Counted from the stretch's first letter, positions 3,001 through 52,135 are shown. The stretch is 64,000 bases of DNA from a virus (IMGVR_UViG_3300031992_000042:41696-105695); one strand, 5' to 3'. The notes: a model not told the origin generated them from the letters alone. Translations and numbers: made by a program.

Positions 3001-5894
3001 ATTCGTTTTAAAGAAGCTTGTACCGCATCGGCAAGTTCTTTATCGTAAATTGCTTTTACTTGGTCTGCATCGTAGTCCATGCCTTGAAGAATTCGTCTAT
3101 CTTTTTCAGAAACATACATTCCTGTAGAAGTTGATATGCCAAATCCTTTATAAATAGGTTCTGCGTCAGCTGCCAAATTCTGCGCATAGTACATATTGCC
3201 GTATCCAGTAGGAGAGCGAACAACCGCTACATTGGCTTGATCTTTTCTGTTAAAGTCAAGCACTTTACCTTGCGGTAAAATGATCATATCTCGAATATCT
3301 TGGTCGGATAATCGAGCGTTTGCTTCTTTGTCTAAATATGAGCGAGCTTTCGCAATAGACGCATCTGGAACAGTCCCATCTTTAGCCAACAATATCGTCG
3401 CTAAAGGGCTTGCTGCAGCGCGAAGGTTTGCAATTTTGTCATCGTTGTCAAAGTTGATATATTTACCAGCAATTAAGTCGTTGTAAAGAGAAGCTCGCAT
3501 ATTATCAATTCGTGAACGAGCTTCTGTTGACGCTAATAACTGTGAATTGCCACCGAATAAAGGATTAACCTTTCGACTTAGATAGTCTTCTTTATTGCCG
3601 AATACATATTTCAACTGACCTTCTTCGGTATCAAGTTCTTGCATTCGCCTCATTGCCATTTCAATTTGATGTTGTCTTAATTCAGGAGAAAACATCATAA
3701 AAGACGACATCTGAGTACCTAAGTTATCTGAAGCAACTTGATCTAAGTCATAGTCAGCATGATAACTCATAGGATGACGCTGTAATAATGCGGTGAACCT
3801 TCTACTTGCGATATCGCCAGATACATAATTACCATTTTCGTCTTTAAGAACACCTTGGTTCTTAATAACATCCATCGGTATATATCCTTGATAATCTGCG
3901 ATATTAAATAATTCGCCGTTCGGACCAGGAGCCATTAAACGACCTTGTTCGTCAAGTAAACCAGTTTTCTTGCCAAACGCTCTTAAGTCGTTCCCTTCAA
4001 AAACAAACGCAGAACCTTTAAGACCGACTCCGCCTCTGAATTGACCAGAATGTGGCATAACTGAACTTGCAAAGAAAGCACCGCCGTCTCCGGGGGACAC
4101 TCCGCCAAGTTGATCTTTTAACCGACTTGTATCAACTACAGCAAAACGTTTACCGTCTATATTTATCCCAAGGTCTGATGTATTCGTCCATGCTTTGTTA
4201 AGCATTTCAAGATGCTTACCATACTTCTGTGCAGTAATACCATCTTTACCGCCAACGCCGTTTTGAATTAAACGATCTATTTCTGCGTCGTCGAAACCGC
4301 GCCAATATGTACCACGAATACCACGAACAGCTTCATCAGGATGGTTTCTAATCCATTCCGCTTCTTGCTCGTTAACTCTATTAAAAGCATTTTGCTCAAT
4401 CATACGAACAATAGTGTCCTGACCTGTGCCATGAATACTCTGTGCGATAAACTTGGCATTGCCTAATTGAGCGCCATTTGGATTAAAAAGGTTTTCTAAA
4501 AACTTTTGATGTTCTGGATTTTTCGCATCATATCCAGCTAATGATACAATACGAATTGTATCGCTCACGTCTTGGTTGTTTTTCCATTTACCGCCACCCA
4601 AAAGTCTTGTATTATGACTTTCAGAGATCATAACACTCCTAGGATCGCCTAATGCAACTTTATCGCCTGTAAATGGAGAATATTTAGATACTACAAGCTG
4701 ATCTTGAATACGTTTGCCTTCTCCTTGAAGTTTACTCCACGTGTTAGGATTGGCAGAATTTGTCCATGCACGAGTATCTTCCATACCTTCAATGTCTTGC
4801 ATGGCAAGCATTGCTCTGCCTGACGTAGAGGATGTTAAACGTTGCATTAACGTTCTTTTATCTGATCCTGTTGCTTTATATGCATCAATAGCATTGCCCT
4901 TATAACCAGAAACTCTAACTAAAAGATCATCATATAAAGCTTTTCTAAATCCTTCCCATTCAGATCTTGAAATTTCGTCTTTAGTTTCAAGTACGCCACG
5001 TTCATCTCTTCTGCTAATACCAGAGGCTATTGCAGCTTTTACTGCAACAGAATTGTTTTTTAGAATATTATCAAGCTGTTTTCTATAAGCAGTGTCGAGC
5101 ACCATCGACTGATATGACTTATCAAACGTCTGAAAGTCCCGGCCCTGAGATCTGAAAGTTGCCTTGAAAGACTCGGGAAATAAGTCTTCTGGTTTACCTG
5201 TATATAACCCAGCACTTACATTTTGTCTAACATGACCGTATCTTGCCTTCTGGTAAATTTTATTCATGTTAGCTGGAGTAATAGACGGAATAAGATACTC
5301 AATCATCCTATCAAGGTTGAATTCAGCATCTGTATTAGATAAGCCATGTTTGTTTAATAAACCTCTTATTGCAGGGTCCATTTTTGTTGGGTTAGTTCCG
5401 CCTGTTAATTCTTTTGCAATTTGTCCTACGTCTTTTGAGAGAATTGAACTGCCTGCTTTACTTAAGCTACTTATTCTACTCCGAACGATAGAAGTTAATT
5501 GTGGAGCAATAGTATCAAACTGATGTTGCACAGCAGATGGAAGATCTCCAAACCATTGTTTTGCTATTTGCGCACTATAAGATGTTGTACCAAGCTGAAC
5601 ATCTCTTAAAGCATTAAGCTCTAAAATATTATTATTTGCACCACGCTCAAGCGCAACACGCTCAGCATCGGAAGAATATGTTTTATTTTGAAGCTTCTCT
5701 AATTTGTCATTTAATGCGTCAACAACAGTAACTGAACGTTCAAATGAATTATCAAGAATTTTACTAACATTTGGCATTTCCGAAATACTTGTTTTTAATC
5801 CATCAATGCCTTGTTTAATGGTACTAATTTGTTGTTTCGCATCTCCAAAGTCCATGTTAGCAGATATATTAAGTTTAATTTCATTCCACGGCAT
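1..5894 (-). CDS. Tape measure protein (partial, runs off window start) with an N-terminal YonO/RdRP-like RNA polymerase domain
   Basis: ATG at 5894 with AAAGGAG RBS (MPWNEIKLNISANMDF). The frame appears open to position 1, since no closed long ORF is listed here. TMP core VKQFDASMNTIQMIT..LYRQGLS near 550-720 is in the same frame as GDGG..QFRGGVGLKG, VVRSP and GMDYDADQ. Position downstream of tail tube and chaperones fits a TMP. Confidence 0.85.
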   Translation of the reverse strand, partial: MPWNEIKLNISANMDFGDAKQQISTIKQGIDGLKTSISEMPNVSKILDNSFERSVTVVDALNDKLEKLQNKTYSSDAERVALERGANNNILELNALRDVQLGTTSYSAQIAKQWFGDLPSAVQHQFDTIAPQLTSIVRSRISSLSKAGSSILSKDVGQIAKELTGGTNPTKMDPAIRGLLNKHGLSNTDAEFNLDRMIEYLIPSITPANMNKIYQKARYGHVRQNVSAGLYTGKPEDLFPESFKATFRSQGRDFQTFDKSYQSMVLDTAYRKQLDNILKNNSVAVKAAIASGISRRDERGVLETKDEISRSEWEGFRKALYDDLLVRVSGYKGNAIDAYKATGSDKRTLMQRLTSSTSGRAMLAMQDIEGMEDTRAWTNSANPNTWSKLQGEGKRIQDQLVVSKYSPFTGDKVALGDPRSVMISESHNTRLLGGGKWKNNQDVSDTIRIVSLAGYDAKNPEHQKFLENLFNPNGAQLGNAKFIAQSIHGTGQDTIVRMIEQNAFNRVNEQEAEWIRNHPDEAVRGIRGTYWRGFDDAEIDRLIQNGVGGKDGITAQKYGKHLEMLNKAWTNTSDLGINIDGKRFAVVDTSRLKDQLGGVSPGDGGAFFASSVMPHSGQFRGGVGLKGSAFVFEGNDLRAFGKKTGLLDEQGRLMAPGPNGELFNIADYQGYIPMDVIKNQGVLKDENGNYVSGDIASRRFTALLQRHPMSYHADYDLDQVASDNLGTQMSSFMMFSPELRQHQIEMAMRRMQELDTEEGQLKYVFGNKEDYLSRKVNPLFGGNSQLLASTEARSRIDNMRASLYNDLIAGKYINFDNDDKIANLRAAASPLATILLAKDGTVPDASIAKARSYLDKEANARLSDQDIRDMIILPQGKVLDFNRKDQANVAVVRSPTGYGNMYYAQNLAADAEPIYKGFGISTSTGMYVSEKDRRILQGMDYDADQVKAIYDKELADAVQASLKRMGAYKDSDVKGEDIVYTPEQLKSWSVQNRLQAERNLYATMPMGTGSSGIRIMQVDYSRPENQALVYAAQRMAGIYDIGSTPKKAQTYTLEKDDPVWAALGLGKEYTKFSEKRTDLFKFDEDMIVSPDRKNAVKTREGTYIDASHPDIYKASNGEYINLRALRDMGIDEINLPSRYMSNHMMAIAQANQLYRTGNVDPTQMDAIYEAMDKQLGYGDAGPERIKLMQTMRMLHHQFGTGERAYITNDEGQYIQGLINAAAAELTLAADDYRDPTTGKFMLGDKAYDTKEQWAKAQEARYGIRTARNAIDQFGMLESDLVRTYGDDFRTNFVNATDAVGQTLVSKVVELRKQAEAFKEPEQPKEPAKPETAIVANNNIIRDEKGNIVYEDKNTGNLVYVENPKASGSASMPIQGGTSTNQSESADAIWGPQTPKKAEQTEQREKVLADLSKYEHALEVGNRFNQILSDTRTYGDELWREQRGKENKLNDEKTLAERQYNYLQYRTFENLQPLNALEEELASDAAFTGTKDLEDQRSAWMSQIAQARDKVTENMHKSFTNGIMLDAKQLEDDITKELNGFGLSKQKETLNKYDERISKQQNGITWMQNRLDKGLVDSAYQKQYEDAIKVANQRIANAQDARASLAAEYTTQNETAGRLALESLQIKQGLKSKNSLSVISAARKQEINTLRKQVGNQYNEGQYSKNEYDRINEGLDQLERRANPAMIALGQGAKILKTEFKSTFGYMSNMFTRRLFQSAISETTNFVKQFDASMNTIQMITLKTDEQISTLGDTLIDKAKEMKVSVAEITQSAATLYRQGLSDQEVDERLGVISKFSKVSGTKVDAATKLITVAMNTGLVSQAEQAADIVTALGDNAATNAAEIEKGIEKAGAAAAADGTTFAQLSAMLTAITSTTQIGGNVAGRTLNTIFGRMNKIGTNELIYDENGNAVSGSAVAKLLEEEGIRMYDEYGNKRSSFDTLFALSQKWESLSDAKQQQFANAIAG

Positions 5895-6007
5895 AAATAT
5901 TTCTCCTTTTCAGTTTAGTTATATATAAACAGATAAACTCTGAAATTTCCGAATTTTGACTTTCACTCCTTTTGTGTGTAAACTATATACGAAAGGAGAT
6001 AATATAT

Positions 6008-23295: not shown

Positions 23296-25719
23296 ATGAA
23301 AATGATCCAGAAGCTAAACCTTATCGAAAATAAGGTTGACACCATCTCTCTGTTCACGTCAGCGTTCACAGACAAACTCGATGCTATGAGCATCGATCCC
23401 AAAGACGCAATCGTCAAGATTTGCGCAGAGTGCCCTAAGAACGATGAAGCAGAAGCTATTGTCAAGGCTACACTTGCGAACTATTGCGCCGAAGGTTATC
23501 TCCTCGGAGAGAACATTTACGATGCATTTTGCGCTGGTGCTAGCGATGCTCGTAAAGCTACAGCTACTTGGCTTCGGCACGATCTCGTTCCTGAACTTGG
23601 CAAGTGGGCTATGTGTGGGTTGAACACCAAGAACATGAAACTCGCTATTAACAAGTACATGGCATACATCGGATTGCTGTTCTCTGCAAGCAAGCCTTTC
23701 GTCGATGTTTTCGGCAAGAAGATTGACATTCGTCGTGTCGCTGTTATCAAAGATACAGATGTTGTCGTTAACGCAGTTGCAGATCTTGTGACGATGGAAT
23801 CTGTGTCTCGTAAGGTTAATCGCGAGATGGTTATCAATGCATTTGATGGATGTGGAATCCATCGCTATGAACTTACAAACGGCGAAGCTTGCACTTTAAG
23901 AGACGCTTGGATGAAGATCTGCAGTTTCCCTGTAAAGTGGAGTAAACTGTTTGGTTTCTGCTGCGACCGTGGCATCAAAGCTACGTTTGTAGACTTCTGG
24001 GGTAATGAGATCGCTCTGAAAGACGTGGATCTTATTATCACGGAGTCTTGCTTCAAAACAATTAAACTGTATGAATCTTGGGAGCAGTATTGCAGCGCTC
24101 ACGAAGCTCTTGGACATGAAATCCGTGTCTGCGTACGGGAGCACGCTCCGAAGCTGAAGGGACTTCCTTATCAGCAAGGTCAGACTCTGATGGGTAACGA
24201 AGACGACGCAATGTCCTTCGCTATGCATGCCAAGAAAACGGTGTACAAGTATCATGACATAGCTGGCGCACCGAAACTCCTCCGTGGCGCTCATCAGCAG
24301 GCTGCAAAGATGTATCCTGCGCTGATGACTGAAGGTCATACTAAACGGGCAATGCAGGAAATGTACACAACCAAACGTAACGATATGCTCGGCGGACGTA
24401 TCCCTGAGCTTGGTTACAATGCGTTTCTCGCTCCTGATCCGGTTGCATTTGCAGAGCATCTGTTCGGACTGGAAATCAAAGGCTTCCTGAAAGCAGGAGA
24501 ATGCTATTGCTCGAACTGCAAGGAAGGTCTCGTTGATGTGACTCGGTCTCCGCACCTGGACAACGCACATGTCCTTCTGAACAACGTGACTGAATGCCCG
24601 CTGGCAGAAGGTCCTACGATGTTCATCAACATCTTCGACACAACTACTATTCAGCTTCGTGCTGACTATGATGGCGATCATGTATGGTACAGCCAAGACG
24701 AACATCTGCTTCGACTGGTTGAAGAAACCTACGAAAAGCTGAACAATATTCCTGTTGATTGGGATGTTGCTAAAACAGATAAAGTCCAGATCACCAAGTC
24801 TGGAGTTGCGAACTTCATCATCAACCTGATCCACGGATCTGAAATCGGCTTGTATGCCGATGCTCTGACTAAGATGTGGAATCAAGCTTACGATCAGGAC
24901 GTCTGTGATTGGTTAACTTATGCAGCTAACGTTCTTATCGATGCTGCAAAGCATGCGACTGTGAAGATTAAGAAACCTGATGCGGTTGTCGAACTGAACA
25001 AGGTTTCTCTTCCGCTGTTTGCAATGTATGCCAAAGCGGATGCTGACCGTCCTGTCGGTGACTATTGGCTGAAAGAGCGCAAAGTCATGACTCGTCGCGG
25101 AGAAGAAGTAAATCTGCCTCCCCGTTGTGCTTATTCTGGATCTTTCTTGGATATGTATTCTAAGAAGGTGCAAGAGAACGTGACTGAAACGCTGACAGTC
25201 GAAGGACTGGATAACGAAATCTTCGACGTCACCAAGATGATGTTCGACGCGCATCGCAAGATCGGCAAACTGTCTGGTCTGTCCAAAAAGGGCGTTTACA
25301 ACGAACAGACTGGCAAGTTCAACGACTGTGGTCTCTTCCAAGAGATTGCCTTTCGGCACAGCACCGAATGGAACAAACTGGTAGGAGAAACTTCCTTCTT
25401 TGCTCATCGCCGTGAGTGGGAAGAAGAAGTTGCGAAAGCTGCCCGCAAGGAGATCATCGACTGGGCTCGTGCTCAGTACGAAAATACTTCTGACATCTCC
25501 GATGAACGCATTGAAGATGCTTGCTATGACATAATTGTCCGTAACATTTACGGTACAAAGATGAGTGATGGCATGGACACTGTAATCAAACAGGCGTTCT
25601 GGAGAATCTATGGAGATAAGGCTGTGAAGGCTCTGAAGCAGAACCTGAACGAGTCTATCCCGGACTTCGATGACGAAGAGTTTGAAGAGCTCTTCGATGT
25701 AAGTGACTGCGATTGCTAA
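23296..25719 (+). CDS. Single-subunit DNA-dependent RNA polymerase, YonO/RdRP-like (copy 1)
   Basis: FDGCG, VTRSPH, catalytic ADYDGDH, IDAAK motifs. Confidence 0.85.
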   Translation: MKMIQKLNLIENKVDTISLFTSAFTDKLDAMSIDPKDAIVKICAECPKNDEAEAIVKATLANYCAEGYLLGENIYDAFCAGASDARKATATWLRHDLVPELGKWAMCGLNTKNMKLAINKYMAYIGLLFSASKPFVDVFGKKIDIRRVAVIKDTDVVVNAVADLVTMESVSRKVNREMVINAFDGCGIHRYELTNGEACTLRDAWMKICSFPVKWSKLFGFCCDRGIKATFVDFWGNEIALKDVDLIITESCFKTIKLYESWEQYCSAHEALGHEIRVCVREHAPKLKGLPYQQGQTLMGNEDDAMSFAMHAKKTVYKYHDIAGAPKLLRGAHQQAAKMYPALMTEGHTKRAMQEMYTTKRNDMLGGRIPELGYNAFLAPDPVAFAEHLFGLEIKGFLKAGECYCSNCKEGLVDVTRSPHLDNAHVLLNNVTECPLAEGPTMFINIFDTTTIQLRADYDGDHVWYSQDEHLLRLVEETYEKLNNIPVDWDVAKTDKVQITKSGVANFIINLIHGSEIGLYADALTKMWNQAYDQDVCDWLTYAANVLIDAAKHATVKIKKPDAVVELNKVSLPLFAMYAKADADRPVGDYWLKERKVMTRRGEEVNLPPRCAYSGSFLDMYSKKVQENVTETLTVEGLDNEIFDVTKMMFDAHRKIGKLSGLSKKGVYNEQTGKFNDCGLFQEIAFRHSTEWNKLVGETSFFAHRREWEEEVAKAARKEIIDWARAQYENTSDISDERIEDACYDIIVRNIYGTKMSDGMDTVIKQAFWRIYGDKAVKALKQNLNESIPDFDDEEFEELFDVSDCDC

Positions 25720-39740: not shown

Positions 39741-40172
39741 ATGCATGATTTATCTAATTACAATATTTATACTTGTAAAGATGGCAGAGTTAGAGCATAT
39801 AACAAAATAACTCATGCTGTAACATCCTATCCAAGATTACTAATGGAAATAAAACTTGGACGACCTTTATTAAAAACAGAAGATGTTCATCATATTGATG
39901 AAAATCCGCAGAATAATAACATTGAAAATCTAGAAGTTGTTGATCATCGCGAGCACGATAGGCAACATGCACGAAAATATTTTGATAAAGAAATGATATG
40001 TCCAATTTGTGGCAAAACGTTTATTTGGACGGCATATCAACAAGTAAAAAGAGCTGGTAATATGCAAAGAAAAAATAGAATAATACCTAAAATCGGACCA
40101 TGTTGTTCTAAATCATGTGCTGGTAAAGCAAGTGCAATGACAATTAAAGAAAATAAAAGAAAGGCTGTTTGA
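39741..40172 (+). CDS. HNH homing endonuclease with Zn finger
   Basis: DVHHIDENPQNNNIENL..H; CPICG..CC. Confidence 0.85.
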   Translation: MHDLSNYNIYTCKDGRVRAYNKITHAVTSYPRLLMEIKLGRPLLKTEDVHHIDENPQNNNIENLEVVDHREHDRQHARKYFDKEMICPICGKTFIWTAYQQVKRAGNMQRKNRIIPKIGPCCSKSCAGKASAMTIKENKRKAV

Positions 40173-41942: not shown

Positions 41943-42395
41943 ATGGTATGTATGAGAAATGGATATAAAATGCTCTTTATGCCAGAACATCATCGTGCAG
42001 ATATAACAGGATGTGTTTATGAACATGTTATTGTCGCAGAACAAAAAATAGGACGAGAATTAAAAGATGAAGAAGTAGTCCATCATATTGATGAAAATAG
42101 AAGTAATAACTCACCAGAAAATTTAATGGTTTTTGCAAATACAGCAGAACATAGTGCTTATCATGCCACACATGAGGCATATCAGATTGATAATATTTGG
42201 TATGCATCAAGAAAAAGAAAGCCAAAAGAATGTAAAATTTGTGGCAAAATGTTTATTCCTAAATATAAAAATATAAATTATTGTTCGCATAAATGTGCAC
42301 AAAAAGCTAATAGAAAATTACCAGATATCGACCAAGTTGTAAATGTACTTCGAAAAAAACAACGGCAATATGAGTGCTGTCAGCAGAATTTTTAA
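41943..42395 (+). CDS. HNH homing endonuclease (C-terminal HTH out of frame)
   Basis: YEHVIVAE..VVHHIDENRSNNSPENL; CKICG..CS..C. Confidence 0.8.
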   Translation: MVCMRNGYKMLFMPEHHRADITGCVYEHVIVAEQKIGRELKDEEVVHHIDENRSNNSPENLMVFANTAEHSAYHATHEAYQIDNIWYASRKRKPKECKICGKMFIPKYKNINYCSHKCAQKANRKLPDIDQVVNVLRKKQRQYECCQQNF

Positions 42396-42678: not shown

Positions 42679-43049
42679 CTTGCTCTCTTAATGGGATACA
42701 GAGAGCGTTTGTACCTCCTTTCAGGTTGAATAAACATTGCTCCGATGTTTACAGTTGCCGCTGGTTTAGTAGGAGCGCTTTTTGCCAACCGCAAGCGGTT
42801 GGCTTTATACCGTGAATCCTATAACTAATTTACAAGTCTTAACCTGTTACATTGATTATAGGATATTTTTTTATGCCCTGACACGTAAGTTCTTAATGAA
42901 TGGCTCGTCTCCATTCGGGGTAAACTGCATAACTCACAGAAAAGTGTGAAGCACTGCGAAGAGTTTGGATAGCATCTCTGGAAGTTCTCGTGCTATCCGC
43001 TGATCATCATCTTATTTATAAGAAAATTTGATTAATGGAGGGATGAAAG

Positions 43050-43658
43050 ATGATCAAAGTTACTCTTATTAGCACCAATGGACGCAAGACCGACATGTTT
43101 GCAGAACATCAGACTCCGCGTGAAGTATTTGAATACTTCGATGTTGATTATTCCGTCGCGACAAACACTATTGATGGTGTCAGGATTGGTATCGGTGACA
43201 TGGACAAGTCTCTGAAAGAGCTTGGCGCAGGAGCTGAATGCCGTATCTCGTCAATTGTTAAGACCGATAATGCTGCGCACATTGATCTGACTGGCGCTGC
43301 GGCTGTTCTGGTTTCCGATGTGAAACTGGAAGACTGGAAGCGTGTCGAAAAGTACGCACCGGAAGCTCTGAAAATCGTCGATGAAGAAGGCGATGTTGTC
43401 TTCAAGGTTATGACTTGTTGCTGCACTGGTTCTGTTAATGAAAACGGAGTGTGTTTCGGCACATACACCAACGAAGGCGGTCTTGCAACTGTGACAGTTC
43501 TGATGGACGATGAAGTAGAAGATCGTCTTCAGGCAATTAAAGATGTTGCTGGGCAGGCTCTGCTGGATCTGAATGATATTGAAAAGGATATTCCTCAGAT
43601 TCTGAAGGACATTGAAGAGAAAGAAGCGGAGATTGAAAAGCTGATTGTAGCTAAGTAA
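43050..43658 (+). CDS. Ubiquitin-like (beta-grasp) N-terminal domain protein
   Basis: First ~75 aa show a beta-grasp-like pattern ending IVKTDNA; leads the E2/JAB/E1 operon. Confidence 0.55.
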   Translation: MIKVTLISTNGRKTDMFAEHQTPREVFEYFDVDYSVATNTIDGVRIGIGDMDKSLKELGAGAECRISSIVKTDNAAHIDLTGAAAVLVSDVKLEDWKRVEKYAPEALKIVDEEGDVVFKVMTCCCTGSVNENGVCFGTYTNEGGLATVTVLMDDEVEDRLQAIKDVAGQALLDLNDIEKDIPQILKDIEEKEAEIEKLIVAK

Positions 43659-43670
43659 TCTCCGATACAT

Positions 43671-43702
43671 AGGGGCTGAGGTTAAACTCAGCCCCTTTTT
43701 TT
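43671..43702 (+). terminator. Terminator after Ubl gene
   Basis: AGGGGCTGAG-gttaaa-CTCAGCCCCT plus T-run. Confidence 0.8.
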
Positions 43703-43732
43703 AAAAATTATAAGGAGATTAAAAGTACAAAA

Positions 43733-45151
43733 ATGTTTAGAGAACATATTGAAAAACCAATTGATCCTATTCCGCAGGTTTACGCTGACAAAATTCAGCG
43801 CCTGTATAACGAACCTGATTATAGTTTAACCTCTCTTGGTATTGCACTTCTTAAATCACGTATTGAAAATTATGACGGTATTACTGGTGTTTATTATAGC
43901 TACGACAATAAAGTAAATGCATTTAAGGACTTTGTTAATCGAGTAAATTCTGTCGATACTCATCCTTTGTATTGCTATTATATATATAGTACAGATAACG
44001 ATGTTTCAGATATTATAAATGAAAATCTGTCTGAATTTAAAGAAAGAAAAAATATTTCTGCATTCATTAAAGAAAAGTCCGACAACGAATGCACTGTTTT
44101 ATATCATGAAACAAAGAATGCAGTAGGTATCTTTGTTAATTCAAGAGATTTTCGACTGTATCATCTTCTGATGTCATTCGTTTCTTTGTATTATCCTTCT
44201 TTGTTTGTAGAAAAGAAGATGACAGAAGAAGACTATACAATTGTTAAATCATTATCTAATAAAGAAAAAGATAAGTTTTATACAAGTGTTCAGAACGTAT
44301 TAAAGCCTTTCACGATTGAATTTAGAAGGCTTCAACTTAGTTCTTTAATGAAAGATATTCATGATGTAAAGATTAACAATGCTTTGAACAATGTAAATAA
44401 TCTGAGAAGTAGTGCAAATTCTATCGAAGAACAGCTTGGACGTGTTATCGCACAGTTAAAGGATGCTATTGTACTTTATGAAGGTATGAAAGCTACTGAA
44501 AATTATGATGCTCCTGAAGAAGAATTGGTAGAATATCTTTCAAATAATGCCGATATTCATGGTCTTGATATTAGAGATCATCATTTATATTTCTCTGTTA
44601 CAACATTGCTGAACAATTTTAATCAGCAAGCATGGGATACGTTTAGCAATCGTGGGAATATTTATGACGGCGAATATAGCGCAAATTTGCTTGACGTATT
44701 CAAGAAAAGAGAAAACAGAAAGATCATTCTTGATGCTATCTTCAGTGAAGACCCGAAACTGTTTGTGCGAATGGCTGGAAATTATATTATCAATCTTGAT
44801 CAGTGTAGAGTATCTACCAGTTCTGGATATGATTATGAAAATGTCGATCCTATATTTAAAGATTATATGCCGAATCCGCATTTGAAAATCTTCGAATGTC
44901 TAGGCGGATATAGAGACCGAATTATGCCCGCGTTAAGAGATCGTAATTATATTTCAGCTATTGAAATTTGTATTGCTTCAGCAGGATCTATTAATCTTGA
45001 TGAAGTTACCCAAACATTCAGACCATTCTTAGGATGGATTCTGTCTAGTACAAATAAGATTATGCAAACTCAGGATGGAACTGCCATGACACCTGAAGAG
45101 GCACTTGTATGGTTAATTGATAATAAGGAGAAAGATAATGCGACCGATTAA
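43733..45151 (+). CDS. Coiled-coil protein with C-terminal prokaryotic E2-like domain
   Basis: PNPHL...CLG motif; located between Ubl and JAB genes. Confidence 0.55.
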   Translation: MFREHIEKPIDPIPQVYADKIQRLYNEPDYSLTSLGIALLKSRIENYDGITGVYYSYDNKVNAFKDFVNRVNSVDTHPLYCYYIYSTDNDVSDIINENLSEFKERKNISAFIKEKSDNECTVLYHETKNAVGIFVNSRDFRLYHLLMSFVSLYYPSLFVEKKMTEEDYTIVKSLSNKEKDKFYTSVQNVLKPFTIEFRRLQLSSLMKDIHDVKINNALNNVNNLRSSANSIEEQLGRVIAQLKDAIVLYEGMKATENYDAPEEELVEYLSNNADIHGLDIRDHHLYFSVTTLLNNFNQQAWDTFSNRGNIYDGEYSANLLDVFKKRENRKIILDAIFSEDPKLFVRMAGNYIINLDQCRVSTSSGYDYENVDPIFKDYMPNPHLKIFECLGGYRDRIMPALRDRNYISAIEICIASAGSINLDEVTQTFRPFLGWILSSTNKIMQTQDGTAMTPEEALVWLIDNKEKDNATD

Positions 45152-45962
45152 TCTGTCGAATGAGGCAATAGAAAAATTATACGGTGAATTTCTTGAAAAA
45201 TTCAAGAATGAAATAGCAAATTACGGTTTTAACGGCGGTTCTTCGATGACAATTAAAACTAATTTCGAAGAAGTTGCTAAAGAAAAGGTTATTATTAGAT
45301 ATACACAGGAAGCGTTCTTGCGTATGCAAGCGTTGGTAGATTTCTTTGATTCTGAAGTTGCATGGTATGGGCTTTGTGAACGGCTCGGAGAAAAAGAATT
45401 TAGAGTGTATGACGTTAAGGTTTGTAAGCAAGAAGTTACAGGAGCTAAAGTAGATACAAGCGATGAAGACACTTTAGAATTCTTCTGCAGTCTAACTGAT
45501 GATGAAGCTGAACATTTGCATTTTCAGGCTCATAGTCATGTGAAAATGTCTACTGGAGCATCAGGTACGGATATTCAGAATCAGCAGGATGTTGTAAAGA
45601 ATATGGGTAAGACTGGTTATTATATTTTCCAGATTTGGAACAAAAATAACGATATTAATACTTATCTGTATGATTTAGATAATAATGTTTTCTATGATCG
45701 AAAAGACGTAATGATCGTGATCGAAGATAGCCTTGGAGATCTGGATGACTTTATTGCATCTATTGCTGATTGTGTTGTAGAAAAGAAAACATATCCATAT
45801 CAGTATAGTGGAAGTGGCTATGCTGGAAATTACTATAATAAATCCGTAGAAACGAAAACTCCAAAAAAAACAAAAGAAAACGAAGAAGATGACTACGACA
45901 CGGTCTATCTAGGAGAATATTATGATGGTATTCATGGATATTATGGAAGGAGCGATTGGTAA
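45138..45962 (+). CDS. JAB/MPN metalloprotease
   Basis: SEVAW..HSHVKMSTGASGTD (E..HxH..S..D); overlapping start MRPINL. Confidence 0.85.
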   Translation: MRPINLSNEAIEKLYGEFLEKFKNEIANYGFNGGSSMTIKTNFEEVAKEKVIIRYTQEAFLRMQALVDFFDSEVAWYGLCERLGEKEFRVYDVKVCKQEVTGAKVDTSDEDTLEFFCSLTDDEAEHLHFQAHSHVKMSTGASGTDIQNQQDVVKNMGKTGYYIFQIWNKNNDINTYLYDLDNNVFYDRKDVMIVIEDSLGDLDDFIASIADCVVEKKTYPYQYSGSGYAGNYYNKSVETKTPKKTKENEEDDYDTVYLGEYYDGIHGYYGRSDW

Positions 45963-46634
45963 TTGAATTTATCAAAAAGCTTTGAGTTTTTTAATCCTGA
46001 AGTGTGTATAGATACTATTCATATTATCGGCTGCGGTTCAGTTGGTTCAACCGTAGCCGAACTTCTTGCTAGGTTTGGTTTAAAAAATGTTAAACTTTAC
46101 GATTTCGACTTTGTAGAAGAGCATAATTTGGCTAACCAAATGTTTACAACAGAGAACTTGTATAAACCAAAGGTTGAAGGCGTATATGACCGATGGGTTT
46201 CTATCAATCCTGAAGCCGCTAAAACAATTAAATTATATGGTGACGGTTGGACAGGACAAAAATTAAACGGTTATGTATTTCTGTGTGTAGATAACATTGA
46301 ACTTCGCAAGAAGATCGTAGAAGAAAATAAGTATAATCTGAACATTAAAGCAATGTTTGACTTTAGGACGAGTTTAGATACAGCGCAGCACTATGCAGCA
46401 GACTGGTCTAAGCCTAAAAGTATTGAAGCGTTGCTTGATACAATGGATTTTACTCATGCAGAAGCTGAGAAGAATACTCCAATGAGTGCTTGTAAAGTTT
46501 CTTTGTGTGTAATGCCAACTGTTTGGTCTGTGGCAATGGCTGGTGTAGTAAATTTTGTAAATTTCGTTAAAGAAGGCAAATTAGAACAGGCTGTTATTAC
46601 AAGACCATTTGCATTTGATACTCTTATTTGTTAA
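45963..46634 (+). CDS. ThiF/E1-like activating enzyme
   Basis: IIGCGSVGS, DFDFVEEHNLANQ, K, CVDN...R, distal SAC. Confidence 0.9.
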   Translation: MNLSKSFEFFNPEVCIDTIHIIGCGSVGSTVAELLARFGLKNVKLYDFDFVEEHNLANQMFTTENLYKPKVEGVYDRWVSINPEAAKTIKLYGDGWTGQKLNGYVFLCVDNIELRKKIVEENKYNLNIKAMFDFRTSLDTAQHYAADWSKPKSIEALLDTMDFTHAEAEKNTPMSACKVSLCVMPTVWSVAMAGVVNFVNFVKEGKLEQAVITRPFAFDTLIC

Positions 46635-47143
46635 TAAAGTCCATCAACTTCGGTTGGACTGTTTATGTTATAAATAGTAACGCTTTGCCCGGTAGGAGAC
46701 GACGGGCCAAATGCCCAGACGGCTGGAGGTGCTGCACTGCTTACTGCTGAAAGAGGCAAATCAAATTAGAAAACCTATAAAATAACTAATTTACACCTAT
46801 TCAATTGAAGAAATTCACTTGAATCAACCATAAAGTCGCCTGGGAAAAGAAGACTGAATCTTAATTTAGTTTATAAACAAAAGAGTATTAAAAATATCAT
46901 ATAAAGACCTTCAACTTATGTTGGACAATTTATGTTATAAGTTGTAACTCTTTGCCGGGGAATAGTGAAACGACGCGGGCATGTCTGAAGAACATTCCAC
47001 TCCCGAAATCATCGTAGAACAAAATGAACTGCTACTATACAAACTGAAAATTAAAATATTCAGTATTAACAGAACCATTAAGATAAATAGACCAATACGA
47101 CGGACGTCAAGAAACTCCCTGGGATCTCCTAATTTAGTTTATA
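46634..47143 (+). ncRNA. Two tandem ~267-nt structured repeat units upstream of RT
   Basis: 59-nt 5' blocks at 46634 and 46901 (49/59 identical); TAATTTAGTTTATA 3' blocks at 46862 and 47130; variable middles. Confidence 0.7.
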
Positions 47144-47166
47144 TGATACAAGAAAAGGAAGTAAAA

Positions 47167-48309
47167 ATGATTTATATTACAACAATGCAGCATAGGAAGC
47201 CAAGGCAATTATCTTGGGAAGATGTCATTATGGAAAAAGAAATTTTTAATGATTTTACTAATGACAAGTCTTCATCTACTGCAACAATTACAAGAAAATA
47301 CGAAGAAGTAAAAGAAGAAGTTCTTAACAGAATTAACGTAGATGCTATGATTAGATGGCTAAAACAGTTTAATGATTCGAATAAAGAACTGTTTGAAGCA
47401 GATCGTAAGTCTCTGTATTCGTCGTTTAAGATTCCGAAAACGACTGGTGGATTCAGGCAAATTGATGCTCCTTGTGAGAAATTGCAAGACGAATTACAAC
47501 GATTGGTACATTTCATTGGGGATGATTGCGGTGTGCTGTATCATACTGCTGCGTTCGCCTATGTAAAAGGCAGAAGTATTGTTGACTGCATAAGGAAACA
47601 TCAGAAGAATGAATCTATGTGGTTTCTGAAAACAGACTTTAGTGGGTTTTTTCCAAATACTACTTTGAATTTTACAATGAAAATGTTGTCGATGGTATTT
47701 CCACTGTCTGAAGTATGTAAAAGAGAAGATGGATATAAAGAATTAGAAAAAGCAATCAGCCTTGGATTCTTGAACGGTGGACTTCCTCAAGGAACTGTGT
47801 TGTCTCCGATGCTTACAAACATTTTTATGATTCCGATTGATCATAAATTGTTTAATGAATTGGCGGATCGACACATTGTTTATACACGATACGCTGATGA
47901 TATTCATATTTCAGCTCAGGAAAAATTTCCTTGGCAAGAAATTGTTAAATTGATTGAAGATACGCTAAAAGAATTTAATGCGCCTTGGGTAATTAAGAAA
48001 GAAAAGACACATTTTGGTAGTAGAAAAGGTCGCAACTGGTCATTAGGATTAATGCTGAACAGTGATAATAATATAACTGTTGGATGGAAGAAGAAACAAT
48101 ATTTCAAGGCTGCGCTATGTTCGTTTATTCTTGATACAAAGAATGGCAAACATTGGGATATTGGAGATGTTCAACATCTTCGTGGTCAATTGTCCTATTA
48201 TACAATGGTTGAAAAAGATTATTTTAATAGCATTATAAAACAGCAAAATAAGAAATGGAATGTAAATGTAAACGATATGTTTAAAGCATATCTCAATGGA
48301 ACTGTTTGA
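47167..48309 (+). CDS. Retron-like reverse transcriptase (380 aa)
   Basis: IPKTTGGFRQIDAP, AFAY, KTDFSGFF, LPQGTVLSPMLTN, YTRYADD; AAGGAAG RBS before ATG 47167. Confidence 0.9.
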   Translation: MIYITTMQHRKPRQLSWEDVIMEKEIFNDFTNDKSSSTATITRKYEEVKEEVLNRINVDAMIRWLKQFNDSNKELFEADRKSLYSSFKIPKTTGGFRQIDAPCEKLQDELQRLVHFIGDDCGVLYHTAAFAYVKGRSIVDCIRKHQKNESMWFLKTDFSGFFPNTTLNFTMKMLSMVFPLSEVCKREDGYKELEKAISLGFLNGGLPQGTVLSPMLTNIFMIPIDHKLFNELADRHIVYTRYADDIHISAQEKFPWQEIVKLIEDTLKEFNAPWVIKKEKTHFGSRKGRNWSLGLMLNSDNNITVGWKKKQYFKAALCSFILDTKNGKHWDIGDVQHLRGQLSYYTMVEKDYFNSIIKQQNKKWNVNVNDMFKAYLNGTV

Positions 48310-48520: not shown

Positions 48521-49220
48521 AGAGTTAAGAAAGGAAGGAAGTGCTCCTGTTTTTCTCTCTCTTTAACATGTCTCGATGTTACGCATACGTGCAGCGGTTA
48601 GTAGAGACTTCTGCCCGAAAGGGCAGAATTATATGAGGCTGACAAGTTCACGGCTTGAAAGTCTCTTGCAGTTTGCCAGAACTCATCTGGTGTAGAATAT
48701 GCTTTAAAGCGCTTACCGCGTTTAAAGACACCCGTGAGTGTCTAACGCGGTATTTTGCTCTGCTGCGTAAAAGCTTAATGACAGGCTCGCCACCTGTCGG
48801 AGTAACAACAAAAGACAGTTATACTGTGTCAGATCTTTCCTGATATCTAGATAGTTCGACTAATCATCGGACTACACCTACACATTTTTCCTTTCTGTAT
48901 GTTCTGGATAGGTTCTGCTGACAACATAGGATGAACTTTCTCCCCGAGGTTTATCCTATTATGCGGTACTTGCGTAAAGGTTAAATGCAACCTCGCCTGT
49001 TGCAGCCGCCAATTTAATAAAATGAAAGCACCATATAAAGACCTGCATCATATGACGATACTGGTGCTGCAGCAAGTTCACTCGTATTCTTTAAACAAAC
49101 AGGATGTAAGAATGCCCCATGTTGATTTAGAGACCACCAGATACGAGACTTATTGCTGTTGGAGCTGTTTATTATTACGGGTTGGGTTCGTATACCGACA
49201 TAAACAGCTCCTATTTTTTA
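48521..49220 (+). ncRNA. Candidate large structured RNA or leader upstream of RNAP 2
   Basis: Multiple hairpins; ends in a terminator-like GGAGCTG..CAGCTCC plus T-run. Confidence 0.4.
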
Positions 49221-49297
49221 TTACAGAATTAGTAAATCTATCCTTTTGGATTAAATATACGTATCTTAAAAACAACAAAATGAAAGGGGGCCGCGAG

Positions 49298-52135
49298 ATG
49301 TCTGTAAAGACATACTTGCAAGAACAGATTCGTCTTGTATCTTTGTTAAGTAAAGACTTATACACAGATGAAGAAATGATTCTGTACAAAAAAATAATCG
49401 ATCAGAAAAATATCCTAGATCTGATGGATGAGAAAGGAGCAGAAAAAGAAGAACGCAAAGCTGTAATCAACGAGAAAAATAAACTAAAAACACAGCTTGA
49501 TAAGCTTATTCTTTCTCATGCAGATACGCCAAGAACTGTGAACTTAAAGTCTGTCATCTATTATCCCAAAGATGCAGACTATCCTTTTCCCGAAGGAGTA
49601 ACTTATCGAAGTTTAAAAACAAATAAAAAAATAGCTGAGTTTTGTTGCGAATTATCCCGCGCAATGGGACTTGAAAATTTAGACTGTACTCTTGATTTAA
49701 TTGTAATCAAATGGAAAAACATAGAGATTTTAAGACAACTAGTAGTTAATGGATTTTATATGCCAATTCTGAATAAAGATGGCACAGTAGAAAATAGACA
49801 CTATCATTTTTATACAGCCAGCAGCGGTCAGTTAAGGCGTGATAAGTTCATGGCAATATCTGACAGCACATGGAATAAAATTCATAATAAACTTGAATGC
49901 GGTATTACTTGGGATGTTATCAACGCAAAAGGCGGGATAAACTCAAATAAGTTAAGTGCTTATGATGCGCTTCAAAATTCTGCAACTGAAGTATGGGAAG
50001 ATTTTAATATAGATTCTGTAATTGTAGTCGATGATTATGAAGGCGAAGTTACTGATAGAATGATTTATATTAAACCTGATTATACGTTTGAAAAAGGAAT
50101 ACGTACAGTAAAGATAACACATACAGACGGATGTGGAATGATGCTCCCTGAAATATCTGATTCGAATTTTATGATCAGAATACCGTATGGAAAAGGCTTA
50201 TTAATAGTATTTGACTTTATAAGATTCTGCAAAGAACATAATGTAGAACCTATAGTAACTGATATATATGGCAAACAATGGCATCTAATAAACGATAATA
50301 TTAAAATAATTCTGTTTAAAAGTATGTTTAAACTTTGGAAATATTTTAATAACTGGCAAGAGTATAAAGATGAATTCAAGAAGAACGAATGCCATTGCGG
50401 AAAAACTAACTATGAAGAAGAATTCTTAGCAAATAAAACATTAAATTATCAAATGATAGATACGTTAACAGATTTTACGGATGAAGAAATTAAACAGTTT
50501 ACAGAAAAAGAACATGAACGTATCGTTAAGCTCACAAAAGATAAAGATGCAATGCTTGACGTGTTGAAAGCAAATGAAAAAAGTGAGCAACCATATAAGG
50601 TTGCTCTTAAAATTTATCCAGAACTTTTACGTGAAGCTTATGCTCGACAATCTTTAATTGATATTCGTAAGCGAATGTTATTGGATGCTAAATCTGGAAA
50701 AATAAGGAGTTTAAATAAACGTTTATTTGCTTGTCCAGATCTATATGGCGTTTGTGAATGGCTGTTTTTACATGATGAACATCCTAAAGGATTACTAAAA
50801 AACGGAGAAGTTGCATGTAAAATATTTAGACGGCATGAAAAAGTAGACGTGCTTCGAAGTCCACATTTAGCGATGGAACATGGCGTACGAAATATCGTAC
50901 AGAATCAAAAAGTCTATGATTGGTTCTGTACAAATGGATTATATAGCTCGTTGCATGATTTATTAAGCAGATTGTTGCAATGCGACTGGGACGGGGATCA
51001 GCTGAATGTTGTAGCCGATCCTTTATTTGTCGAAATTGCAGAAAGAAACATCAAGAAATATGACGTTGTACCGTTGTTTTACGAGATGGACAAGGCTCCG
51101 GCTGAAATAATAGACAGTAATACTATGTTCAACGCTTTAAAAAGAGCTCATGACTATTCTGCTGGAGAAATAACAAGTATAGGCGAGATATCTAATATGT
51201 TGACTCGTCTTTGGAATAAAGAAAATCCAGATAGAGATGTTGCTAATCTGCTTACAATGTTCAACAATTTAGTGATTGACGCAGCTAAGAACGGAAAAAT
51301 AAACCATTATAAGAATTATCCAAAGATAGCGAAAAGAATTGGCAAAGCTACCGGAGGTAAAAATGGTCGCATGCCTTACTGGTTTCAATTCTCAAAAAAT
51401 GGCAGAAAAGATACGCCAGAAAATAGAAACCGTAAATATGCAGAACCCAATAATTCAACGATGAACCGAATATGTAAAGCATTTGACGATATTGGATATA
51501 TAAATCTAAACTATGCTGGCATTTCTCAGTTCAATTATCAAATGCTTATGTCTGCTCCATGCTATGATTCAAAACCTGAAATTTATCAGTTATTTTGCGA
51601 GCTTGATAACTCGAATAAATCAAGTATTATTGCTTCGCAAGAAAATACTTATGCTTCAGAGAAGCAACTGATAAATAATTATAGTATAGTAGCGGAAGAC
51701 ATTACAAACGAGATCATTCAAAGATATGGTTCATTGGAATATGCCTATCCATATATAGTAAAGTATCTTTTTGCAGGAGAAGGCATGGACAAATCTGCGC
51801 ATAAACAAATGTTCTGGCGTGTGTTTGGAGAAATTGCATTAAATAATCTTCGCAAGAATTTATCAGAATGTGATACGTGTAAAGATTGTTTTATAAAAAT
51901 ACCAGCATGGGTAGAAGACCATAACTGTATAAAAAATACAAAAGGTTTTTATGAATGCATAGACTGTCATGTTTTATGTGAACGAACTAATCCGAAGCAA
52001 TGTCGTTGTACAGAATGCCAATCTGTGTATAAAACATTACAAAGACGGATAAAGCAAAGAGCCAAAAGAGAATTAAAGAAAGTAATTGAAGAACAACGTA
52101 TTACGTCCTTGGGATCGTTCTTGAACAAGACGTAA
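49298..52135 (+). CDS. Single-subunit DNA-dependent RNA polymerase, YonO/RdRP-like (copy 2)
   Basis: TASSGQLR, TDGCG..IR..KG, VLRSPH, catalytic CDWDGDQ, IDAAK, C-terminal Zn fingers; start MSVKT with AAGGGGG RBS. Confidence 0.88.
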   Translation: MSVKTYLQEQIRLVSLLSKDLYTDEEMILYKKIIDQKNILDLMDEKGAEKEERKAVINEKNKLKTQLDKLILSHADTPRTVNLKSVIYYPKDADYPFPEGVTYRSLKTNKKIAEFCCELSRAMGLENLDCTLDLIVIKWKNIEILRQLVVNGFYMPILNKDGTVENRHYHFYTASSGQLRRDKFMAISDSTWNKIHNKLECGITWDVINAKGGINSNKLSAYDALQNSATEVWEDFNIDSVIVVDDYEGEVTDRMIYIKPDYTFEKGIRTVKITHTDGCGMMLPEISDSNFMIRIPYGKGLLIVFDFIRFCKEHNVEPIVTDIYGKQWHLINDNIKIILFKSMFKLWKYFNNWQEYKDEFKKNECHCGKTNYEEEFLANKTLNYQMIDTLTDFTDEEIKQFTEKEHERIVKLTKDKDAMLDVLKANEKSEQPYKVALKIYPELLREAYARQSLIDIRKRMLLDAKSGKIRSLNKRLFACPDLYGVCEWLFLHDEHPKGLLKNGEVACKIFRRHEKVDVLRSPHLAMEHGVRNIVQNQKVYDWFCTNGLYSSLHDLLSRLLQCDWDGDQLNVVADPLFVEIAERNIKKYDVVPLFYEMDKAPAEIIDSNTMFNALKRAHDYSAGEITSIGEISNMLTRLWNKENPDRDVANLLTMFNNLVIDAAKNGKINHYKNYPKIAKRIGKATGGKNGRMPYWFQFSKNGRKDTPENRNRKYAEPNNSTMNRICKAFDDIGYINLNYAGISQFNYQMLMSAPCYDSKPEIYQLFCELDNSNKSSIIASQENTYASEKQLINNYSIVAEDITNEIIQRYGSLEYAYPYIVKYLFAGEGMDKSAHKQMFWRVFGEIALNNLRKNLSECDTCKDCFIKIPAWVEDHNCIKNTKGFYECIDCHVLCERTNPKQCRCTECQSVYKTLQRRIKQRAKRELKKVIEEQRITSLGSFLNKT

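Follow-up and report, generated by a model that had tools for sequence, protein, structure and literature searches.

A candidate five-component ubiquitin-like conjugation cassette carried by a large gut phage

To our knowledge, the only prokaryotic systems for the conjugation of ubiquitin-like (Ubl) proteins characterised to date are host defences, namely the Bil, Bub and CBASS Cap2/Cap3 systems. The Bil operon, a bacterial anti-phage system, encodes the Ubl BilA, the E2 BilB, the JAB protein BilC and the E1 BilD (PMC10557695; 10.1101/2023.09.04.556158), and BilC both pre-processes BilA and cuts conjugates (PMC10557695). Type I Bub loci encode a Ubl-E2 pre-protein, BubAB, that is cut after its reactive residue by the JAB domain of BubCD, together with the DUF6527 protein BubE, and oxyesters are used in this system (PMC11601596).

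Here we describe a locus from a large uncultured gut phage with a genome of 105.7 kb, located in a stretch of 64,000 nucleotides that was analysed as a whole (the window). We favour, with moderate confidence, the reading that this locus is a phage-owned Ubl conjugation machine of five components, which would place a complete Ubl kit on the virus side. A search of full-text literature, with subscription journals outside its coverage, returned no description of a phage-encoded Ubl/E1/E2/JAB cassette.

Organisation and conservation of the locus

Four open reading frames on the + strand occupy positions 43050-46634, where the initial annotation had placed four contiguous genes. The first, g1 (43050-43658; 202 amino acids), encodes a Ubl-X precursor and is preceded by a strong ribosome-binding site, GGAGGG (43037-43042, + strand), that can be read directly 7 nt upstream of the start. 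It is followed by g2 (43733-45151; 472 amino acids), by g3 (45138-45962; 274 amino acids), a JAB/JAMM metallopeptidase, and by g4 (45963-46634; 223 amino acids), a minimal E1-like adenylating enzyme with a single ThiF domain. The start of g3 was assigned to the ATG at 45138 rather than to the TTG at 45117 because homologues begin with MKPI or MRPI. There is a 14-nt overlap between g2 and g3, g3 and g4 abut, and g4 begins with a TTG codon immediately after the g3 stop; from this arrangement, g2, g3 and g4 are judged to be translationally coupled. No second copy of any of the five parts was found in the 105.7-kb genome.

The spacer between g1 and g2 (43659-43718, + strand) carries an intrinsic terminator with a stem at 43671-43696 (10 bp, 7 of them GC) and a T-run. 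In addition, a pairing is predicted between TCTCC at 43659-43663 and GGAGA at 43714-43718, the Shine-Dalgarno sequence of g2. A GC-rich hairpin with a T-run is present, in differing sequences, in all 12 related spacers compared, and the TCTCC...GGAGA pairing recurs in most of these. The GC content at third codon positions is 0.43 for g1 versus 0.25-0.28 for g2 through g4. The conserved terminator and the codon bias together suggest an excess of g1 product, in agreement with the initial proposal that the terminator implies excess Ubl.

The same gene order was found again in ~170 related loci, and the motif residues first quoted for g1 through g4 are invariant across 66-74 distinct relatives. 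As judged by sequence comparison, the motifs and gene order of the cassette are beyond chance. The five parts (Ubl, X, g2, JAB and E1) strictly co-occur, and g2 is present in every complete locus. The family is very common: g2 alone accounts for 2170 protein clusters (50% identity), and 193 IMG/VR contigs and 75 animal-gut MAG contigs belong to it. Searches of other kinds returned little: the operon DNA gave no match in a phage collection, tblastn with g2 in that collection found one unannotated gut phage (21% identity), and the neighbouring 1037-amino-acid gene used as a query returned just 5 close loci. A scan of genome contigs with g2 sequence patterns found none, and E1 patterns did recover loci.

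Downstream lies a retron-type reverse transcriptase (RT) gene (46981-48309, + strand; Pfam RVT_1, 2.9e-20), which forms the context of the cassette. The initial annotation included neither this constant neighbour nor X as a separate, obligate component.

The Ubl, domain X, the JAB and E1 proteins and the probable carrier g2

Residues 1-75 of g1 (43050-43274, + strand) form the Ubl. A beta-grasp fold of ~75 residues, originally proposed with less certainty, is supported, and g1 does contain K71-T-D-N-A75-A76 followed by a second domain, as first described. We propose the tail V-K-T-D-N-A75 as the reactive C-terminus; it follows the pattern V-K-x-D-N-A, lacks the usual Gly or Gly-Gly end, and occupies the position equivalent to Gly75/76 of ubiquitin. 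Across 40 close homologues, I69, K71, D73, N74, A75 and A76 never vary, but the C-terminus of the whole protein is not conserved. Among 53 distinct Ubl sequences, A75 is present in 50, with Gly in rare relatives, and the terminus is Asn-Ala in ~90%.

Roughly half of the ~170 related loci have two genes in place of g1, namely an X gene, which comes first, and a free-standing Ubl gene. The free-standing Ubls end exactly at ...D-N-A in 16 of 27 distinct viral sequences and in 23 of 51 distinct MAG sequences; the others carry 1-4 extra residues, apart from two that are longer. Gly-Gly is found at the D-N-A position in three free-standing Ubls, and rare tails read ...DGG-C or ...DGG-CC. Because the free-standing Ubls stop at or near ...D-N-A, Ala75 is taken as the reactive end, and the JAB protein is predicted to cut between A75 and A76 in the fused form, as the initial annotation had proposed in placing cleavage near DNA-A. 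Since both split and fused forms occur naturally, the processing site can be defined without biochemistry, and this comparative sequence evidence sets both the domain boundary and the reactive end of the Ubl.

The remainder of g1 (residues 76-202 plus stop; 43275-43658, + strand) consists of A76 and domain X, a beta-sheet with a C-terminal helical hairpin in the AF2 secondary structure (pLDDT 80-89). Where X is encoded by its own gene, the product has 128-141 amino acids. Residues S89 and E178 are invariant in 59/59 X sequences and K101 is retained in 56/59, and the domain has no invariant Cys or His. No match to X was found among Pfam and PDB sequences, a PDB profile search yielded chance matches alone, and nothing usable was found in a protein atlas. 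Likewise, hhalign comparisons of X with the g2 C-domain and with one Cap2-type E2 sequence gave probabilities below 2%. From its co-occurrence with the other parts, whether fused or free, X is considered an obligate fifth component of the cassette.

The initial assignment of g3 from the motif HSH..S..D holds, in that an exact JAMM signature (E73...H132-S-H134-x7-S142-x2-D145) is present with exact spacing and is invariant in 73/73 sequences. PADLOC JAB models match g3 with E-values of 1.2e-4 and 1.6e-3, and Pfam Prok-JAB matches 2 of 40 members of the g3 family (0.005); a PDB profile search with g3 found no JAB protein. The C-terminus of g3 has a Lys-rich and then Tyr/Gly-rich tail with a conserved D-W/Y at its end.

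Both a GxGxxG motif and a Pfam match bear out the identification of g4 as a ThiF/E1 protein. It matches Pfam ThiF (PF00899) with 65.3 bits (cut-off 28.1; E = 5.9e-18) and the PADLOC E1-E2 model at 1.7e-14, and a profile search of PDB recovers UBA5 (2e-14), MoeB (2e-12), Cap2 (1e-10; 7tsx/7to3) and ThiF (7e-10). The residues G23-x-G25-x-x-G28, D47, D49, N55, Q59, K70, D110, R135 and C177 are invariant in 66/66 distinct sequences. Cys177, the candidate catalytic residue, lies within an invariant P-x-S-A-C and probably corresponds to the crossover-loop Cys of ThiF and MoeB. Thioester transfer by g4 is not assured, because the separate catalytic-Cys (CYS) domain and the UFD domain of canonical E1s such as Uba1 and BilD are missing.

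The g2 protein comprises a variable, fast-evolving N-terminal alpha/beta domain (residues ~1-175), a long helix (180-255) and a C-terminal alpha/beta domain (256-472). Its candidate active-site motif, N381-P-H-L-K-I-F-E-C389-L-G391 (codons at 44873-44905, + strand), contains H383, C389 and G391, which are invariant in 74/74 sequences (N381-P-H383-x5-C389-x-G391). In a structural model the motif follows the last strand and precedes helix 392-402, and the order is N-P-H, not H-P-N. An invariant Cys with a preceding His/Asn motif before a crossover helix is a feature of E2s, and g2 has it. The part of the initial claim that concerns an NPH..CLG motif stands, but its E2 affiliation finds no counterpart in an E2 family match or, by Foldseek, in a UBC fold.

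Several searches bear on this point. The g2 sequence has no match in Pfam, PHROG, NCBIfam, PADLOC or PDB, 14 diverse g2 C-domains have none in Pfam at E-values up to 5, and the Prok-E2_D model has no match in the phage genome. When g2 was compared with PDB and BFVD by Foldseek, no UBC or other known fold was returned, the sole match being an uncharacterised siphovirus homologue. Comparison of the g2 C-domain by hhalign with two Cap2-type (Prok-E2_B) E2 domains gave 0.1% and 1.9%, with a single sequence on the E2 side in each case, since just 2 of 399 Clostridia genomes contained Prok-E2_B. Middling VIA matches were to RWD-type domains, and a repeat VIA search of PDB gave coiled-coil matches plus one weak match for residues 253-424. 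In a protein atlas the g2 C-domain falls in unnamed viral clusters, one of which has Prok-E2_D in 11% of its members (score 0.86) and provides a lead. The PDB profile matches to the JAB protein, the g2 C-domain and X (TEV-site/His-tag strings, luffin, ChlaDUB2 and L23) were rejected as chance. In our reading, g2 is probably an E2-like Ubl carrier or ligase.

Proposed mechanism and alternatives

We hypothesize that g1 yields an excess of a Ubl-X precursor, and that the g3 JAB protein cuts this precursor after Ala75 to give a 75-residue Ubl with a C-terminal Ala and free X. The g4 enzyme would then adenylate Ala75 and probably hold the Ubl on Cys177 as a thioester, from which the Ubl would move on to Cys389 of g2. 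The fast-evolving N-domain of g2 may pick the target, whether of host or phage origin, a lysine of which would receive the Ubl, and the JAB protein could also undo the conjugation. This last step is suggested by the fact that JAB is retained in loci where the Ubl needs no trimming, which argues for a deconjugating role and hence for real conjugates. Against this reading stand the lack of a demonstrable E2 link for g2, the Ala-terminated Ubl and, for the thioester step, an E1 that lacks the CYS and UFD domains of Bil and eukaryotic E1s; Bub enzymes use oxyesters. We know of no characterised E1-conjugated Ubl with a C-terminal Ala; those known to us end in Gly.

The alternative that survives best keeps the same chemistry but assigns it, together with the adjacent RT, to inter-phage warfare, either as Bil-like tagging of the structural proteins of competitors or as the effector arm of a retron. 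In all 91 viral loci whose DNA extends far enough, and in most of the MAG loci, the RT gene lies directly downstream of E1, Bil is known to tag a phage tail fibre (10.1101/2023.09.04.556158), and the rapid evolution of the g2 N-domain fits an arms race. However, the RT adjacency may be plain synteny, as the gene after RT (phrog_8308, 1037 amino acids) is equally syntenic. Moreover, the cassette behaves as a core set of its lineage and not sporadically like a defence-island gene: E1 identity among relatives is 50-85%, and E1 is conserved as much as neighbouring core genes. We consider this role unlikely.

Going further, one might envisage a very large lineage of gut and rumen Clostridia phages with a core Ubl system that has an Ala-ended modifier and a new carrier family unrelated in sequence to known E2s, that needs X, and that is mechanistically coupled to an adjacent multi-RNA retron, for instance through tagging of the RT or of its msDNA complex, or because the retron triggers it. 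If this coupling is true, a virus-owned Ubl pathway would be wired to reverse transcription, but we regard the full proposal as speculative and decidedly unlikely.

We judge it very doubtful that the locus encodes a ThiS/MoaD-type pathway, with a sulfur-carrier or biosynthetic role instead of protein tagging. Here E1 would adenylate the Ubl on the way to a thiocarboxylate, JAB would trim this carrier, and X and/or g2 would use the sulfur on a cofactor, nucleoside or DNA base. The size of g4 is that of a minimal ThiF/MoeB protein, and MoeB and ThiF are among its matches. The fusion of the Ubl to a partner of ~125 amino acids, cut at a C-terminal motif, recalls MoaX of M. tuberculosis, which is a MoaD-MoaE fusion. 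There is also precedent for the trimming of sulfur carriers, CysO and QbsE among them, by JAB enzymes, and the rare ...DGG-C and ...DGG-CC tails resemble trimmed carriers. However, MoaE (PF02391) has no match in the phage genome, although control matches were obtained in 13/14 genomes, and the X profile finds neither MoaE nor any similar family in PDB or Pfam. The sulfur carriers known to us end in Gly-Gly, which is not the prevailing Ubl terminus here. The E1 has no fused rhodanese or desulfurase domain, a large Cys-bearing g2 with a variable N-domain would not be expected in such a pathway, and the retention of JAB where trimming is not needed also runs against it.

It is highly improbable that the Ubl is a cleavable folding or expression tag for abundant X, as in ubiquitin-ribosomal protein fusions, with g2 as an unrelated syntenic phage protein: the predicted high expression of g1 within the set, the strong conservation of X and the unproven E2 link of g2 fit such a scheme, but X does not need a tag because it and the Ubl are separate genes, X first, in about half of the relatives, E1 is always present and retains its adenylation residues and invariant Cys yet has no role in the scheme, and g2 occurs in every complete locus, overlaps g3 and has an invariant Cys.

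Comparison with described systems

We return to the conjugation reading. If conjugation occurs, E1 chemistry would extend to an Ala-terminated modifier, for which the rare Gly-Gly relatives are natural controls, and the cassette would add a new family of carrier enzymes and a new obligate partner, X.

Bil is bacterial, whereas the cassette belongs to a phage genome of lytic type. The Bil E1 has IAD, AAD and CYS domains, whereas the phage E1 is a single adenylation domain of 223 amino acids. By sequence, g2 is not linked to E2s of the BilB type, and it has extra N-terminal and coiled-coil parts. The Bil Ubl ends in Gly and the phage Ubl in Ala, and the phage cassette adds X and always adjoins a retron-type RT. 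Type II CBASS resembles the cassette in pairing an E1 with a JAB partner (Cap2/Cap3), and g4 matches Cap2. However, the CBASS enzyme is an E2-E1 fusion that acts on a CD-NTase tail, whereas the phage locus has no such fusion and its substrate is a beta-grasp Ubl.

Eukaryotic ubiquitin precursors share with g1 a beta-grasp domain of 75-76 residues, followed by an unrelated protein or by 1-4 residues to be removed, with the reactive position at 75/76. They differ in that their tail is R-G-G rather than D-N-A. In the phage, moreover, the operon itself supplies the predicted processing enzyme, a JAMM metalloprotease, and X accompanies the other parts even as a separate gene. In Type I Bub (6E.1), as in the phage cassette, the Ubl is fused to a partner of ~130 amino acids, JAB cuts right after the reactive residue, and the minimal, homodimer-type E1 lacks a CYS domain. 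The Bub partner is an E2 with catalytic Ser/His, whereas X has no comparable invariant Ser/His/Cys and no detectable similarity to E2. Finally, JAB and E1 are fused in BubCD and the cut falls after Gly, whereas the phage JAB and E1 are separate proteins, the candidate Cys-bearing carrier g2 is separate as well, and the predicted cut falls after Ala.

Layout and surroundings of the cassette

The virus record is linear (105,695 bp) and is estimated to be 77% complete. Genes for the portal, large terminase, a major-head-like protein and the tape-measure protein lie on the minus strand of the window, and those for a primase/helicase and a DNA polymerase on the plus strand. An open frame of ~4,690 codons, unusually long for a tail gene, runs on the minus strand (G000:C1:33544-47604 in whole-genome coordinates) into window positions 1-5909, its end being a tape-measure-like protein. 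The cassette resides in the plus-strand arm, flanked on one side by tRNA and HNH genes, with two free-standing HNH_3 endonuclease genes among the upstream tRNA genes (39741-40172 and 41943-42395), and on the other by a reverse transcriptase. A retron-type reverse transcriptase (RT) lies downstream of the cassette in 91 of the 91 viral loci with room for it. In all relatives the gene next after the RT is the same large one, here the phrog_8308-type gene at 49022-52135. Two large paralogues match phrog_8308, at 23296-25719 (2.4e-74) and 49022-52135 (9.3e-181).

The four contiguous genes described in the initial annotation (43050-46634) were recovered, all co-oriented, and each of the five cassette parts (Ubl, X, g2, g3 and g4) is present as a single copy in this genome. 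The Ubl-X precursor is encoded by g1 (43050-43658, 202 amino acids), the E2-like candidate by g2 (43733-45151, 472 amino acids), the JAB protein by g3 (45138-45962, 274 amino acids, overlapping g2 by 14 nucleotides) and the E1 by g4 (45963-46634, 223 amino acids), whose TTG start immediately 3' of the g3 stop codon is preceded by a GGAAGGAG site. The g3 start was assigned to the ATG at 45138 because homologues begin with MKPI or MRPI.

The ribosome-binding site of g1 is strong (GGAGGG). The terminator proposed after the Ubl gene corresponds to a 10-bp GC-rich hairpin and T-run 3' of g1 (43671-43696), which is kept in 12 of 12 related spacers with differing stem sequences. GC3 is 0.43 in g1, 0.25-0.28 in g2 through g4 and 0.54 in the head-like gene. 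The conserved hairpin and the higher GC3 of g1 fit the production of a stoichiometric modifier in excess over its own enzymes. Within the g1-g2 spacer (43659-43718), a TCTCC segment right after the g1 stop codon is predicted to pair with the g2 Shine-Dalgarno sequence GGAGA across the terminator hairpin. This pairing is present in most related spacers and may serve translational coupling or masking of g2.

The Ubl-X precursor and its predicted processing site

An AF2 model of full-length g1 built with 40 homologues (pLDDT 83.5) gives the Ubl (residues 1-75) the order strand-strand-helix-strand-strand-helix-strand. Foldseek searches with this model returned SUMO1, Smt3 and UBX at probability 1.0 (rmsd 2.3 Å, 71-72 residues), in support of the N-terminal beta-grasp domain suggested earlier. 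After the last Ubl strand (residues 63-69), the tail V-K-T-D-N-A75-A76 leads into the second domain. Residues I69, K71, D73, N74, A75 and A76 are invariant in 40 close homologues, and the actual C-terminus of g1 is not conserved.

Related loci (16 from the g2 query, 80 of 193 viral-contig loci from the E1 query, and 75 MAG-contig loci) were scanned with HMMs of the five parts. Two architectures were observed: a fused Ubl-X, as in the window, and X as its own gene of 128-141 amino acids followed by a free-standing Ubl gene. Of the distinct free-standing Ubls, 16 of the 27 from viral loci and 23 of the 51 from MAGs end exactly at the Ala of ...D-N-A, and nearly all of the remainder carry 1-4 extra residues (A, R, AA, RK, TSK and others). 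In one fused relative, D-N-A is followed by a linker of 16 residues. These natural split and fused variants place the predicted reactive end of the Ubl at Ala75 and the predicted JAB cut between A75 and A76, in agreement with the cleavage near DNA-A that had been put forward. In three free-standing Ubls, Gly-Gly takes the place of Asn-Ala (...KADGG-C, ...KADGG-CC and ...AYGG), which shows Asn-Ala in this Ubl to be the counterpart of Gly-Gly.

In a few MAG loci the X and Ubl genes are doubled (X, Ubl, X, Ubl), or g2 matches occur in tandem pairs, suggesting local duplication of the modifier module. Among split-type loci, a 227-amino acid Cys-rich HNH-like ORF (L014:5673-6356) or a 216-amino acid RNase H-like-looking ORF (L015 and L016:5773-6423) lies between Ubl and g2; the cassette tolerates insertions there.

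The second domain, X (g1 residues 77-202), combines a beta sheet with a helical hairpin in the model (pLDDT 80-89). No complete locus lacks X, fused or free, which makes it obligate and the fifth component of the cassette. Two of its residues, S89 and E178, never vary and K101 hardly does, whereas no Cys or His is conserved. Searches of X against Pfam, PHROGs and PDB sequences gave no match, and comparison with g2 and with a Cap2-type E2 revealed no similarity. The matches listed for the whole-g1 fold search were all filled by the Ubl. From residue 93, the order of secondary-structure elements in X (helix, four strands, two helices) would be compatible with a UEV/RWD-like layout, which we regard only as a lead.

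Candidate enzymes of the cassette

The ThiF/E1 assignment of g4 is secure against Pfam ThiF (65 bits, cut-off 28, E 5.9e-18) and is matched by PADLOC E1-E2 models (best 1.7e-14). A g4 profile of 14 sequences recovered UBA5 (2e-14) and Cap2 (1e-10) from the PDB, as well as MoeB, Uba1, MccB and ThiF. The protein comprises one adenylation domain only, in which the nucleotide (Gly) loop, D47, D49, N55, Q59, K70, D110, R135, H143 and Cys177, the last within P-x-S-A-C, do not vary among 66 distinct sequences.

No match to g2 was found in four family libraries. Word searches yielded homologues in 106 clusters at 90% identity, and a C-domain profile yielded 2170 clusters at 50% identity (with E 1e-30 or better for 765); the best 150 all have the same layout of ~450-530 amino acids. 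In the AF2 model of full-length g2 (pLDDT 91.9), a single 75-residue helix lies between two alpha/beta domains, one N-terminal and one C-terminal. H383, C389 and G391 do not vary across 74 sequences with identity down to 24%, and are placed in a loop before a helix, which is the Cys position of an E2. Conservation within the cassette is lowest in the N-domain of g2, which cannot even be aligned in the most distant loci, as would be expected of a target-selecting module. Together, the invariant residues, their placement and the variable N-domain make g2 a probable E2-like carrier/ligase, outside any E2 family assignment. The NPH..CLG motif of the initial annotation is upheld. Foldseek searches of PDB and viral structures with the full-length model retrieved nothing of known fold, the proposed UBC fold included.

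The HSH..S..D motif reported for g3 is part of the signature E73...H132-S-H134-x7-S142-x2-D145, whose spacing is exactly that of JAMM and which does not vary among 73 distinct sequences. Profile matches are weak (PADLOC JAB 1.2e-4; of 40 members, 2 match Pfam Prok-JAB), and PDB sequences gave no match; on the motif, g3 is accepted as a putative divergent JAMM peptidase. The gene is kept even in loci with nothing to trim, which argues that JAB may also release conjugated Ubl, an activity known from BilC (PMC10557695). The g3 tail (residues ~222-274, window 45800-45959) is of low complexity, Lys-rich and then Tyr/Gly-rich; its last residues are conserved among relatives as (R/G)-W/S-D-W/Y, and it may act as a docking peptide.

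That the cassette is instead a sulfur-carrier system resembling MoaD-MoaE is less likely, because there is no MoaE in the phage genome, the Ubl terminus lacks Gly-Gly, JAB is retained where trimming does not require it and the Cys-bearing g2 is always present. We infer Ubl conjugation by the cassette, and likewise its targets and role.

Distribution and comparison with known systems

E1 relatives with the full cassette occur on 75 MAG contigs, whose sources include the rumen and the guts of rabbit, chicken, horse, termite and human. These are mostly Clostridia (Oscillospiraceae, Acutalibacteraceae, Christensenellaceae, Lachnospiraceae and Defluviitaleaceae), which suggests that the host range is these gut Clostridia, binning being no proof. 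Some of the contigs are 200-360 kb long, a size that may reflect prophages, jumbo phages or artefacts of binning.

The searchable literature yielded no description of this cassette. Among known systems, Bil comes closest in its set of parts and Type I Bub in its precursor logic. In Type I Bub, the JAB encoded in the operon cuts a Ubl-E2 pre-protein directly after the reactive Gly (PMC11601596). Unlike these bacterial operons, the present cassette is owned by a phage, has a minimal E1, a Ubl terminating in Ala and a probable carrier from an unrelated sequence family, and adds both the protein X and an RT as neighbour.
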